From: a virus
Taxonomy: Duplodnaviria; Caudoviricetes
IMG/VR virus record: IMGVR_UViG_3300033072_000473
Coordinates: 1-64,000 of that record
Length of the DNA stretch: 64,000 nt
Strand: one strand, 5' to 3'
The first letter of the stretch is position 1; each line of letters starts with the position of its first letter. The translations under genes were made by a program, and so were the position numbers. The notes under the pieces are model-generated. The model saw only the letters and a program-made list of their open reading frames with translations, had not been told where the DNA came from and ran no database searches. Positions 53,634 through 63,307 of the stretch are shown one piece after another.

Positions 53634-53751
53634 TGGCCCCGAAACTAGGATTCGAACCTAGAACCTCTCCATTACAAGTGGAAGTTAAAGATGCGGTAAA
53701 TATTCTTACAGAATACTATTTTTAGCGCTCTACCGATTGAGCTATTTCGGG
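53634..53751 (-). tRNA. 118-nt tRNA-Thr(TGT) with a 42-nt insertion between D arm and anticodon arm
   Basis: Acceptor cccgaaa/tttcggg + G + CCA; D arm gctc/gagc; anticodon arm ttcca-CT TGT AA-tggag; T arm ctagg-TTCGAAT-cctag; insertion at 53684-53725. Confidence 0.75.
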
Positions 53752-54633: not shown

Positions 54634-56049
54634 CTACAAACTATAACGATCGCTCATTACAGCTTTCAGCATAATTGCTTCAGGAGTAAATTCTTCTAAA
54701 TCGCCACTAAGGACTGCCTTCATAATAGAAGGCGAGAATCCCGAAATAAGTGCCACGCCTTGTTGATTAAACTTAGCAGGAACATTATCATTGGCGTTTA
54801 GATTCCAAAATACAACTTTAGGCACTTGATAGCCAGCACGCTGATATTTGCTGGCAATCATTTGCATAGCATTATGGTCGTACTCAGCGCAATGATCGAA
54901 CTGCATATCCGAAAGGATAAGCAAAATTTCAGGCATTTCGCTTTGTGGTACTTGATTTTTCACTGCTACACCCAGCACTTTATCAAAGGCCACATGTAGG
55001 TTAGTATTCATATTCCACAGAGATTTAACCATTTGTTGTGCACGCTGAACTACATCACCTTTGAGGCTAAGTAGTTCAGGAGTACCAGAGAAAGTAAGGA
55101 ACAAATCCTTGAACTTACCCTGGTTCTTTTCACTAAGGTATAAGCCTAGTGAAACTGCAACATCCATGCAGGTAGTTGAACCTTTACTACCGGCTGCACA
55201 ACTCATAGAGCCTGAAACATCTACCATCGGTAGAATACTTGCAGAACCTACGTAGTTTGGCAGCGCTTTCCACTGAGCTACAATCAAATCCTTTTGAGTT
55301 TGGTTATACTCAGCAGTATAATAAAGGTTAGCAACTCCCTTTAGCACGTCATAAGGGTAAACTGCACCAGCATTAACTTTTACAGTTTTATCGCCCTCTT
55401 TAAGTTTAGCTACATATTCTGCGTACTTGGGAGTATTACGGAAAAATGCAGTCTTATAACGTGCATGTGCTAGACTAGGAACATGGGAGAAATTAATCTC
55501 TTCCCACTGCTTAGAGCACATTTGTTGTTCTACAACTTTAGTCAAATTGACTAGAGTTTTACGATAGAACTTTGGTGACCAACCAAGATACTGACGGAAT
55601 TGTTCCGCCACACGGCCTTTACGTGGAGTCCACTTAGCCGCCAGACCGTTGCCTTCGGCAAGAGCTTGGCGCACTAGTTCGAACCCTACGTCTTGCATCT
55701 TAGGGGTTTGAAACGCAAACAAATCATCAAAGCGACCAAGGTCGGGAACCTTTTTAGCTAGACGAATTGCAGACTCCATATCATTCTTTTCCAGATATTG
55801 CAAAATATCACGGAAAATCTGGCGTTCACCTACCCCTTGACGAATATCACGAACCCATTGTGCAATGCGTAGCGCAATATCCTTGTTCTCTACTAGAGCT
55901 GCGACAAAATCAGGAATAATATCCTTACCACGAGATGCACCAATCTTAAAGAAAAGATCAGTACAAGCATTTTCAGTTGCCTTAAATGCTTTCATCCCAT
56001 TCTGGGTACGAACTTCTTGATTTTGTACAGCTTGAGCAAAAGTAGTCAT
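54634..56049 (-). CDS. Ro60/TROVE-like protein with C-terminal VWA domain (DUF2828-type)
   Basis: RDIRQG.GER, AAKW.PRK, I.FSHVPS.A..RY, VNAGAVYPYDV, MIDAS-like DVSGSM, ILSDMQFD, VVFWNL, LISGFSP. Confidence 0.8.
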   Translation of the reverse strand: MTTFAQAVQNQEVRTQNGMKAFKATENACTDLFFKIGASRGKDIIPDFVAALVENKDIALRIAQWVRDIRQGVGERQIFRDILQYLEKNDMESAIRLAKKVPDLGRFDDLFAFQTPKMQDVGFELVRQALAEGNGLAAKWTPRKGRVAEQFRQYLGWSPKFYRKTLVNLTKVVEQQMCSKQWEEINFSHVPSLAHARYKTAFFRNTPKYAEYVAKLKEGDKTVKVNAGAVYPYDVLKGVANLYYTAEYNQTQKDLIVAQWKALPNYVGSASILPMVDVSGSMSCAAGSKGSTTCMDVAVSLGLYLSEKNQGKFKDLFLTFSGTPELLSLKGDVVQRAQQMVKSLWNMNTNLHVAFDKVLGVAVKNQVPQSEMPEILLILSDMQFDHCAEYDHNAMQMIASKYQRAGYQVPKVVFWNLNANDNVPAKFNQQGVALISGFSPSIMKAVLSGDLEEFTPEAIMLKAVMSDRYSL

Positions 56050-58220: not shown

Positions 58221-58295
58221 TGGTGGACAGTGGGGGATTCGAACCCCCGACTCCTGCGTGCAAGGCAAGTGTGTTCCCAATTATACCAACCGCCC
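58221..58295 (-). tRNA. tRNA-Ala(TGC)
   Basis: G3:U70 pair, loop CT TGC AC, CCA. Confidence 0.92.
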
Positions 58296-58359
58296 AGTTT
58301 ATGAATTCTTTTAATTAAACTCAGAAATAGTATTTTATAAGTTTAATTAAAGTAATTCA

Positions 58360-58660
58360 AGTTTATTTTTCTGTTACTAGGAAAATAAACAAACCCTAAG
58401 CAGTATTTAGGCTGCTAAAGCAAAGGTATTATCGTTTGCGTTTACTTTATTTGCTTTTTACGTCTACTCCTGACGTGTTGCCCTATCAACTATCTCACGC
58501 TGTCGAAACCAGGTCAGGCCCATCAAAAGCATACTAGGGAATCGAACCCCATTTCTAGAATAGTTCCAAACGACCAGAGCGACTGGCAGTATGCTTTTGG
58601 TGGACCTGGGCGGAATCGAACCGCCGTCCAACGCGCCTTTATATCAAAGGTTATACAACA
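58360..58660 (-). ncRNA. ssrA: Circularly permuted (two-piece) tmRNA
   Basis: Acceptor piece (about 58660-58598) ends ggcggTTCGATTccgcc-caggtcc-A-CCA. After a 76-nt spacer, the coding piece starts GGGCCTGACCTGGTTTCGAC at 58521 (G3:U70). Tag GCA AAC GAT AAT ACC TTT GCT TTA GCA GCC TAA = ANDNTFALAA at 58439-58407. Outer ends approximate. Confidence 0.9.
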
Positions 58661-58661
58661 A

Positions 58662-58907
58662 TTACTTACAAGTAGCAAGCCACTTTCTGATTTCTTCTAC
58701 AGTCTTAACACCGCTAATAGAATGTTTACTAGGGAGATGTAGTAGTGTTGGTACTCCGCGGATCATATATTCATCTACAAGATCTGGGTGTACATCAATA
58801 TCTACTACTTCTACATCAATACCTAAATCTGCACTTTCCAAGTTTTTGGCAAGTGCCTTACATGGTTGACACCAACTAGCAGTAAATCTGAGAACTTTTT
58901 CTTGCAT
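58662..58907 (-). CDS. Thioredoxin-like protein (start moved to MQEKVL)
   Basis: WCQPC active site, cis-Pro GVPTL; SD ggag. Confidence 0.88.
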   Translation of the reverse strand: MQEKVLRFTASWCQPCKALAKNLESADLGIDVEVVDIDVHPDLVDEYMIRGVPTLLHLPSKHSISGVKTVEEIRKWLATCK

Positions 58908-59022
58908 ATTATCTCCGTTCTTAGGGCTAGAACCGCGATGCAACCGACAGTGCCTAGGTATCTTCTATTTAATCGCTCGAACGTTTAAGACTTGTTCAGT
59001 CTGCGAACCCTGTTCTTTAATT

Positions 59023-59343
59023 TGGTACCCGTGGCCGGAATCGAACCGGCATGCTTGCGCGAGGGATTTTAAGCGGTTATGTCCTAAAGTTTCCTAAAGG
59101 CCCGGACTATCTCTTTACCTTCAACACTACTTGTTAAGGTAGTGGGCGTTCTTGCTGGTTATTAAGAGGGCTAAACCTCTCCAGTAGTCTCTACACCTTC
59201 CAATACTGTAGTATTGGCTTGGCTCGCGATTGCCATTTTACAGACTCTCCCGAATTAACCCACAGTTTATCTAACTATTTCTAATTAGAGGGGACTATCA
59301 GTTTCTGCTGATCCCTTGTGTCTTCCTATTTCACCACACGGGC
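59023..59343 (-). tRNA. tRNA-Leu(TAA) interrupted by a group I intron
   Basis: 5' exon gcccgtg...cacaaggga(t); 3' exon (c)ttaaaatccct...gccggTTCGATTccggc-cacgggt-A-CCA. Confidence 0.88.
59074..59310 (-). mobile_element. ORF-less group I intron, about 237 nt, IC3-like core
   Basis: P1 gggaU pairs with Gtccc (U.G); Q ggcaatcgcgagcc, R gtgtagagactac, S aagagatagtcc; GAAA-capped P9; terminal G. Confidence 0.85.
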
Positions 59344-62132: not shown

Positions 62133-62309
62133 TTAAATTTCTAGATATGAAATAAACGCATCACAGTTTGCACAGTAATCGTATATATCTTCTTCAGTAT
62201 CAAAGTCACCACCTAGAAAATTATTCATAGCCTCTAAGGGTGAACAGTCGTAGTATGCTGCTTGTTTAATTTCACCATCAAATAGTGAAAGATATGCAAT
62301 TATAATCAT
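62133..62309 (-). CDS. 58-aa acidic hypothetical protein (MIIIAYLS...); not in ORF track
   Basis: TAATG overlap with the UV-endonuclease stop. Confidence 0.55.
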   Translation of the reverse strand: MIIIAYLSLFDGEIKQAAYYDCSPLEAMNNFLGGDFDTEEDIYDYCANCDAFISYLEI

Positions 62310-63307
62310 TAAATAACTCCCTGTGCAAATTGAAAACTAGCTAAATTCTTTTCTTTAGCCTCACACATAATATCAACATATGGTAAAAACTCTTTAGCCC
62401 ACTGATTACACCAAGTATTATGATAGTAATCACTATGTGCGCGAAGTTTAGCTTTAGTTAGACCACTAGCCAATAGTTGCTTAAGATCGTATGGTTGATC
62501 TCGGTCAAGATTGCCTACATGCTCTATACGGCTAACTGCATAGTGCAGTGTGGGTCGCACACCTCGCCAAGATTCAATAACCTGCTGTACTCGTGGATCA
62601 CTAGGTTTAATATACTCACCGGTAGCAATCCAGTGATGATGAATATCAAGCACTAAAGCGCAACGGTCTTTAAGCTCTAGTGAGTGTTCAAGATGCCAAG
62701 AGAACTCAGCATTTTCAATAGTTAAACAGTTTCTAGCTTCGCGACTGAGTTTTTTAAGAACTTGCTTAATGCCTTCAGGCCCGCGCTTACCGCCAATGTG
62801 TACATTAATTTTAAAGTCTTGAAACTCTTGACCATAGCCCATCCAACGAGCAATGTCTGTATGATATTCAAACTCATAAATTGAGTTTTCTACGATTTGA
62901 TCGTTATCACTGGCAAGAACGCAGAACTGCCCAGGGTGAAATGAAAGTCGAATATCGTGTTTACGTGCTAGATCGCCGCACTCTTTAAAGCCGCGTTCTA
63001 GTAAGTTTTGCATATCTAGTTCTTGATAACACCACATATAGTCTTCATGCGTATATGCAGTAAGCAAGTCGCTAGTCATGCGAAACATACGCAAATGTTC
63101 AGGCTGCTTAGCTAAGAACAAGATTTGCTTTTTAAGTGCTTCAATATTAAACTTAGCAAGAGCGTATAATCGCTCATATGCTTTTTGTTTAGTTTGTTTA
63201 GATAGCCAAGCAATAGTAGTTGAACTAGTATTCAAGGCTTTATCTGCCGTTCCCGGACTTTGTTGAATCTTACACGCAAAACCAATTCTAGGAATTTGTT
63301 TGAACAT
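62309..63307 (-). CDS. uvsE: UV damage endonuclease (UvsE/UvdE family)
   Basis: RIGFACK, FRMTSD, RLSFHPGQF.VL, NVHIG, LTIEN, LDIHHH, LRAHSD, MCEAKEK. Confidence 0.9.
   Translation of the reverse strand: MFKQIPRIGFACKIQQSPGTADKALNTSSTTIAWLSKQTKQKAYERLYALAKFNIEALKKQILFLAKQPEHLRMFRMTSDLLTAYTHEDYMWCYQELDMQNLLERGFKECGDLARKHDIRLSFHPGQFCVLASDNDQIVENSIYEFEYHTDIARWMGYGQEFQDFKINVHIGGKRGPEGIKQVLKKLSREARNCLTIENAEFSWHLEHSLELKDRCALVLDIHHHWIATGEYIKPSDPRVQQVIESWRGVRPTLHYAVSRIEHVGNLDRDQPYDLKQLLASGLTKAKLRAHSDYYHNTWCNQWAKEFLPYVDIMCEAKEKNLASFQFAQGVI

Follow-up and report, generated by a model that had tools for sequence, protein, structure and literature searches.

A beta-type two-piece tmRNA gene, complete and circularly permuted, in the tRNA island of a T5-like uncultured phage

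What does a phage do with a tmRNA gene whose acceptor piece precedes its coding piece, where did the permutation come from, and what is the stretch of RNA that lies between the two pieces? These questions are raised by a locus on the minus strand of the IMG/VR virus record IMGVR_UViG_3300033072_000473, which we analysed in a window of 64,000 nt (positions 1–64,000 of the record; all coordinates are those of the window). The source record comprises 87,211 bases with an estimated completeness of 83%. We identify its source as a distant T5-like phage from 20 tRNA genes, a T5 p143-like tail protein, and a family A DNA polymerase that shares about 47% identity with its counterparts in T5-like Serratia, Klebsiella, and Erwinia phages. 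ARAGORN calls these 20 tRNA genes on the minus strand between 51.9 and 62.1 kb. This tRNA island also encodes a DUF7788/DUF2828 protein (54634–56049, minus strand) and contains a tRNA match that is 115 nt long and has an extra arm (53637–53751, minus strand) as well as a group I intron (59083–59310, minus strand; RF00028, 59.6 bits).

ARAGORN calls a permuted tmRNA with the tag ANDNTFALAA at 58316–58690 on the minus strand, and two covariance models from Rfam match the same locus. The beta_tmRNA model (RF01850) scores 144.4 bits (E value 3.6e-44, threshold 84), and the tmRNA_permuted model (RF04321) scores 139.6 bits (E value 2.4e-27) over its full length (model positions 1–213) at 58660–58407. 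The alpha model reaches 68.9 bits (threshold 50) and the cyano model 43.6 bits, which is below its threshold of 70; because RF01850 outscores both, we assign the gene to the beta type. A second ARAGORN call, a "standard" tmRNA at 58221–58495, is an artefact in which the coding piece is fused to the 3' half of a neighbouring tRNA-Ala. The tmRNA gene is complete and circularly permuted and occupies about 58660–58361 of the minus strand. A preliminary description of this DNA, made from the letters alone, had proposed a circularly permuted tmRNA at 58360–58660 and had named ARAGORN and covariance models as the way to check it; the coordinates fit almost exactly, and both the permuted and the beta models agree with the proposal.

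The order of the gene can be read directly from the sequence as acceptor piece, spacer, and coding piece, with an encoded CCA at 58600–58598 and G1 of the coding piece at 58521. The acceptor piece (58598–58660, minus strand; covariance-model alignments and sequence) begins with the 5' strands of helix P2, which the covariance-model alignments place at 58660–58656 (outer strand, UGUUG) and 58635–58629 (inner strand, CGCGUUG). It continues with the T-arm GGCGG-UUCGAUU-CCGCC (58625–58609; loop UUCGAUU), the acceptor 3' strand CAGGUCC (58608–58602), the discriminator A73 (58601), and the CCA. An intervening spacer of 76 nt (58522–58597, minus strand) separates it from the coding piece of about 161 nt (58361–58521, minus strand; sequence, alignments, and fold), which opens with the acceptor 5' strand GGGCCUG (58521–58515). 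The two acceptor strands form a 7-bp stem in which G3 (58519) is opposite U (58604), that is, G3:U70. After the acceptor 5' strand comes the conserved CCUGGUUUCGAC, the UUUCGAC element. With this element, the 7-bp stem with G3:U70, the discriminator A, and a GUUCGAUUC-type loop in the T-arm, the tRNA-like domain is complete. The 3' strands of P2 are located at 58502–58496 and 58482–58476 by the covariance-model alignments, and in the RF01850 alignment CGCGUUG pairs with CAGCGUG and UGUUG/CC pairs with GGCAACA. A hairpin at the PK1 position (58475–58461, minus strand; alignments and fold) follows. The tag reading frame (58407–58439, minus strand; ARAGORN and sequence) opens on an alanine resume codon and reads GCA AAC GAU AAU ACC UUU GCU UUA GCA GCC UAA, that is, ANDNTFALAA with an Ala-rich hydrophobic tail followed by a stop. 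The acceptor-first order, the acceptor stem with G3:U70, the tag, and a coding piece of about 160 nt had all been reported in the preliminary description, and each of these readings stands. It had also remarked that the coding piece leaves little room for the usual pseudoknots; few pseudoknots are typical of two-piece tmRNAs and do not impair tagging (PMC3968760).

The ends of the gene differ from those of the RF01850 model. The tag frame is followed by a hairpin, GUUUAUUUUC ... GAAAAAUAAAC (58361–58390, minus strand; RF01850 alignment and fold), whose counterpart in RF01850 is the penultimate hairpin. The terminator-like hairpin at the end of the model (positions about 307–328), which looks like the terminator of the gene in bacteria, is deleted in the alignment and missing here, and the 3' end of the coding piece falls between 58360 and the tRNA-Ala at 58295. 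On the 5' side, the leader of RF01850 (model positions 1–53) has no credible counterpart, as the stretch aligned to it overlaps the end of a thioredoxin ORF with low posterior probability and is probably not part of this RNA. The first ~50 positions of the alignment (58665–58713, minus strand) fall within this ORF. In bacterial members the 5' part of the model resembles the gene's own promoter (TTGA ... TATAAT), and because it is promoter-like there, the 5' limit of RF01850 cannot be used as the 5' end of the RNA here.

The neighbourhood suggests how the gene is expressed. The upstream ORF encodes a thioredoxin-family protein of 93 aa (58662–58943, minus strand; ORF list; Pfam PF00085, E value 5e-11), and its stop codon (58664–58662) is 1 nt ahead of the first P2 nucleotide of the tmRNA. 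Directly downstream on the same strand, 65 nt beyond the post-tag hairpin, is the gene for tRNA-Ala(UGC) (58221–58295; ARAGORN and Rfam tRNA matches). A promoter scan of the region between the thioredoxin ORF and the tmRNA performed no better than on shuffled sequences, and no terminator stands out. Because there is no convincing promoter in this region, the tmRNA is probably co-transcribed with the thioredoxin and tRNA genes as a long tRNA-island transcript, and because neither a promoter nor a terminator was found for the gene, the outer ends of the tmRNA are undefined. Rfam models detect no riboswitch.

To place the gene among relatives, we used a 25-mer that covers its T-loop, T-stem, acceptor strand, and CCA. 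Exact copies of this 25-mer are present in at least 119 IMG/VR contigs, in 109 of which ARAGORN calls a permuted tmRNA. The tags of this family follow the pattern AN[DE]xx[FY]ALAA and are mostly AN[DE]E[RKQ]FALAA; ANDNTFALAA was found only once among roughly 110 viral copies sampled. Some related loci, including L017 and L081, form a subgroup with long, unusual tags of 28–31 residues that share VKVSMGRGFRF and end in ALAA, AVAA, or ATFA. When eight proteins encoded near the tmRNA were compared with the 119 related loci by tblastn, only a UvdE homolog was matched, with about 50% identity at five loci, indicating that no close relative of this phage is among them. The UvdE UV-endonuclease homologs, which are about 50–58% identical to the protein encoded at 62309–63307 of the window, are near the tmRNA in L011, L019, L020, L037, and L058, and these contigs are otherwise unrelated.

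The family supports the proposed structure. In 76 non-identical sequences aligned without their spacers, the 7-bp inner P2 helix is paired in 92–100% of the sequences with three to four pair types per position, and the hairpin at the PK1 position shows covariation at two pairs. The alignment fold did not recover the outer P2 helix, and because the T-arm and acceptor stem served to fish out the family, they are necessarily invariant within it. Folding of the precursor as a single sequence (z −3.4) reproduced the T-arm, the PK1-position hairpin, and the post-tag hairpin, and in this fold the acceptor stem runs on into a stem of the spacer across one C-A mismatch. In a crude test for a loop–loop pseudoknot between the PK1-position loop and the post-tag region, based on the pairings AGGAG/UUCCU in the window and AGGC/GCCU in some bacteria, we found no excess over permuted partners (3.97 vs. 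4.07).

Covariation across the family, together with the conserved tag pattern, points to selection on a working tmRNA. This bears on the notion that the gene performs no rescue for the phage, being a passenger in decay or else a decoy that would compete with host tmRNA for SmpB or change the fate of tagged proteins. The tag that is unique in our sample and the missing terminal hairpin could be seen as signs of such a role; however, the resume codon, the ALAA-stop end, G3:U70, and the encoded CCA are all intact, and a decoy would have no need of an intact degradation tag. We therefore regard a passenger or decoy as improbable. Instead, the locus is in all likelihood a complete beta-type two-piece tmRNA gene (ssrA) in the tRNA island of an uncultured, distant T5-like lytic phage, and its RNA would rescue ribosomes with the help of host factors.

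How such an RNA might work can be outlined from the features described above and from what is established about tmRNAs (PMC3968760, PMC11915505). The tmRNA would be transcribed along with its thioredoxin and tRNA neighbours, and the precursor would form one long helix in which the closing stem of the spacer prolongs the acceptor stem. Permuted precursors are matured by tRNA-processing enzymes (PMC11915505). Here, host RNase P would cleave ahead of G1 of the coding piece, and a host endonuclease and 3' exonucleases would strip the spacer back to the encoded CCA, after which the acceptor stem and helix P2 would hold the two pieces together. Host alanyl-tRNA synthetase could then charge the tmRNA by way of G3:U70, and host SmpB, the compatibility of which we assume, would bring it together with EF-Tu to stalled ribosomes. 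Translation would restart at GCA and append ANDNTFALAA, the LAA end of which would serve as a protease signal. The likely gain for the phage would be that ribosome rescue is sustained while it shuts down host gene expression. The preliminary description had called the gene phage-encoded and dependent on SmpB and had seen no smpB gene in the window. Searching all six frames of the entire 87,211-base record (83% complete), we likewise found no match to SmpB (PF01668); together with the complete gene and the T5-like contig, this is consistent with a phage-borne tmRNA that would depend on SmpB from the host.

The preliminary description had left two origins for the gene: either it was captured from a host with a two-piece tmRNA, which would make it a host clue, or the permutation arose independently in phages. 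Neither is supported as such by the comparisons that follow. The identical 25-mer is found in two-piece genes of Cupriavidus, the tags of which are mostly ANDEKFALAA. Against RF01850, the Cupriavidus genes score 235–287 bits, and the score of the window's gene is about half that of bacterial members (251–296 bits). Compared without spacers, the window's gene shares 78% identity with the nearest phage copy and 67–72% with the nearest bacterial copies, with 70–72% for Cupriavidus; two other bacterial genes are 61–67% identical. Bacterial beta-type genes and phage genes have RAAG ... CUUYUGAU in common at the base of the excised spacer.

An independent permutation in phages would imply that the resemblance to the bacterial two-piece forms is no more than that. 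There are at least three origins of permuted tmRNAs in bacteria (PMC3968760), and a further one is conceivable; moreover, phage copies far outnumber bacterial ones in our samples, as the 25-mer is present in at least 119 viral contigs whereas, of 151 genomes sampled from the Cupriavidus order, only 4 have a match to RF01850. However, the gene is broken at the same point as in RF01850, the model that fits best (144 bits), and has the P2 architecture and PK1-position hairpin of that model, the base of the spacer is the one found in bacterial genes, and phage and bacterial rows are mixed in phylogenetic trees. A separate phage event thus appears extremely improbable. Because the break point, the helices, and even the stem of the discarded spacer are shared with bacterial genes, the sequence comparisons argue for a permutation that is the same as the betaproteobacterial one and has a single origin. 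In bacteria the two forms can occur side by side: Cupriavidus consociatus (G001) and a second genome (G339) have a standard one-piece tmRNA (217 and 230 bits, respectively) in addition to beta-type two-piece genes, and G001 has three matches to RF01850, with the main two-piece copy amid ordinary chromosomal genes.

Phylogenetic analysis, also suggested in the preliminary description, showed phage and bacterial genes intermingled and did not yield a donor. In a FastTree phylogeny of the spacer-less alignment, the window's gene was first placed beside Cupriavidus (support 0.83), and when more bacterial rows were included it moved to the base of a clade of 53 phage members (0.81); all viral rows of the tree had been selected by the window's 25-mer, and the bacterial genes G132 and G027 are absent from it. 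Because this placement is unstable, we draw no donor from the trees.

If the gene had been captured recently from the host of the phage, that host would have a beta-type two-piece tmRNA. In line with such a capture, the beta model scores highest, Cupriavidus genomes contain an identical T-arm/acceptor 25-mer, and the tag is of the betaproteobacterial style, with the exact tag present in one Burkholderia metagenome-assembled genome (MAG). However, this MAG, the only genome matched in a donor search by exact tag, carries a standard one-piece tmRNA and was rejected as a donor. Bacterial copies are at best 67–72% identical whereas phage copies are closer (78%), and a BLAST search of 401 genomes of the Cupriavidus order gave a best hit of 79% that is limited to the coding piece; this set includes two genomes flagged as unpublished (G028 and G296), and no specific claim rests on either. 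Furthermore, genomes of 185,579 species contain no instance of the phage-type P2 string that the window has in common with other phage copies, and the G+C content of the phage, about 36%, is unlike that of Cupriavidus. An attP remnant of a temperate phage was considered as another source of the locus and ruled out, as both pieces are complete and no tyrosine integrase was found in the record.

Two isolate phages bear on the same point. Ralstonia phage RsoM2USA (L160; MG752970.1, about 331.6–332.0 kb) and Synechococcus phage BUCT-ZZ01 (L161; ON615601.1, about 116.9–117.3 kb) each encode a beta-type permuted tmRNA (RF01850, 92 and 94.5 bits, respectively) that is called permuted by ARAGORN and not annotated in GenBank. 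The tag that ARAGORN assigns to the RsoM2USA gene looks wrong, and the sequence suggests ANDSRYAVAA. The host of BUCT-ZZ01 is a cyanobacterium, Synechococcus elongatus; its tmRNA is of the beta type nonetheless. Conversely, phage Melnitz has an alpha-type gene and a host of the beta lineage (PMC9004378). Because phages of hosts as different as Synechococcus elongatus and Ralstonia carry the beta type, the type of tmRNA is a weak host clue in phages. Judged by these comparisons, the gene is not a recent capture, an origin to which we give little credence, and it says little about the host.

The remaining question concerns the spacer. It is closed by the stem AAAGCAUACU / AGUAUGCUUU, which extends the acceptor helix into the spacer, and its interior is tRNA-shaped, with a 7-bp acceptor-like stem, a 4-bp D-like stem, and a T-arm UGGGG-UUCGAUU-CCCUA (58551–58535), whereas a 7-bp stub with a 3-nt loop stands where the anticodon arm would be. 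The spacer folds at −28.7 kcal/mol (z −3.5). All its scores against tRNA-type models are below threshold (tRNA-Sec, 18.5 bits against a threshold of 47; mascRNA, 13.3 bits), RF00005 does not match it, and ARAGORN calls no tRNA in it. Derivation from one of the phage's own tRNAs gained no support: the best global alignment with the 20 tRNA-type genes in the window scores 11.0, which is not significant, as the maximum for shuffled sequences averages 9.1 ± 1.7 and goes up to 14.5, and the spacer resembles none of these tRNAs beyond the T-arm. Searches for the exact string of its T-arm and acceptor gave no match in any other viral contig or in the genome collection.

Comparison within the family revealed that the closing stem and the interior follow different rules. 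Positions 2–10 of the closing stem are paired in 93–99% of 72 unique family spacers, with three to six pair types each, and the interior has a length of 25–398 nt, with a median of 87, in viral copies and of 18–32 nt in the bacterial copies examined. The spacer is, in other words, a slot that is closed by a stem and has a freely variable interior among relatives. ATG-initiated candidate ORFs occur in the spacers of L041/L095, L004, L044, L098, L018, L042, L054/L073/L102, and L118; the one in L095 would encode 125 aa and the one in L004, 49 aa. Outside of tmRNA genes, a free-standing minihelix in two metagenome contigs (L159, 7170–7235, plus strand; L158) has 6 + 25 nt that are identical to the acceptor strands and T-arm of the window's spacer. 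Its interior differs, no tmRNA is nearby, the contigs are otherwise unrelated, and the minihelix matches no Rfam family.

We read the spacer as cargo that is possibly released as a small RNA. Because compensatory changes preserve the closing stem across the family, whereas the interior is freely exchanged, and because the minihelix recurs in two unrelated contigs, the 76-nt spacer might be a tRNA-shaped small RNA that is freed by the tRNA-processing enzymes that mature the tmRNA, making the tmRNA gene a platform for a second stable RNA; we offer this platform reading tentatively and consider it rather doubtful. A stronger form of this reading, in which release of the CCA end by RNase P would depend on the tRNA shape, is unlikely given that about 70 other family spacers are without tRNA shape, and as most relatives lack any such shape, maturation appears to be independent of it.

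Two-piece tmRNAs of phages have already been published (PMC9004378, PMC11915505) and are common in metagenomes, and the gene described here is a clean, rather divergent new example. Permuted tmRNAs have been counted 53 times in isolate phage genomes (PMC9004378), and the tmRNA database holds 79 phage tmRNA sequences overall (PMC11915505). To the phage-borne two-piece tmRNAs the window adds a T5-like lineage and a new tag. The at least 119 IMG/VR contigs that share one 25-mer indicate that many uncultured phages carry the beta type, and the lesson for host prediction is that neither the form nor the tag of a phage tmRNA is a reliable indicator. The variable, stem-closed spacer, which is tRNA-shaped here, is the only part that might open new biology.

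Among known systems, the closest in architecture is the betaproteobacterial two-piece tmRNA (RF01850), which was reportedly described by Sharkady and Williams in 2004. The window's gene shares with it the gene order, the tRNA-like domain, P2, the hairpin at the PK1 position, the post-tag hairpin, the tag style ANDxxFALAA, and a homologous stem that closes the spacer. It differs in having neither the terminal terminator-like hairpin nor a promoter region of its own, in a spacer of 76 nt rather than the 18–32 nt of the bacterial copies examined, in its low G+C content, and in its location in a lytic-type phage without SmpB.

The published two-piece tmRNAs of OM43 phage Melnitz, pelagimyophages, and others (PMC9004378) resemble the window's gene in that a permuted ssrA is present in a genome without smpB, and in that their carriers are mostly aquatic or uncultured phages for which support or manipulation of host translation has been proposed. 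The Melnitz-type genes are of the alpha type, belong to T4-like myophages, and have a glutamine riboswitch (PMC9004378), whereas the window's gene is of the beta type and is found in a T5-like genome, within a tRNA array, and with no riboswitch detected by Rfam. The genes of RsoM2USA and BUCT-ZZ01 share the beta type, and the loop of their PK1-position hairpin, AGGAGUA, is identical to that of the window's gene; however, they are only 61–71% identical to the window's gene, have spacers of 13 and 111 nt, respectively, and belong to other phage groups (a jumbo phage and Kyanoviridae). For the spacer, there is a single published case with a comparable arrangement, the GCA-2688965 entry, a permuted tmRNA with an intact tRNA-Ala in its intervening sequence (PMC11915505). 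Although the tRNA-Ala of that entry is complete and high-scoring and the window's element lacks the anticodon arm and fails the tRNA models, in both genes the excised spacer is filled by a tRNA-shaped element.
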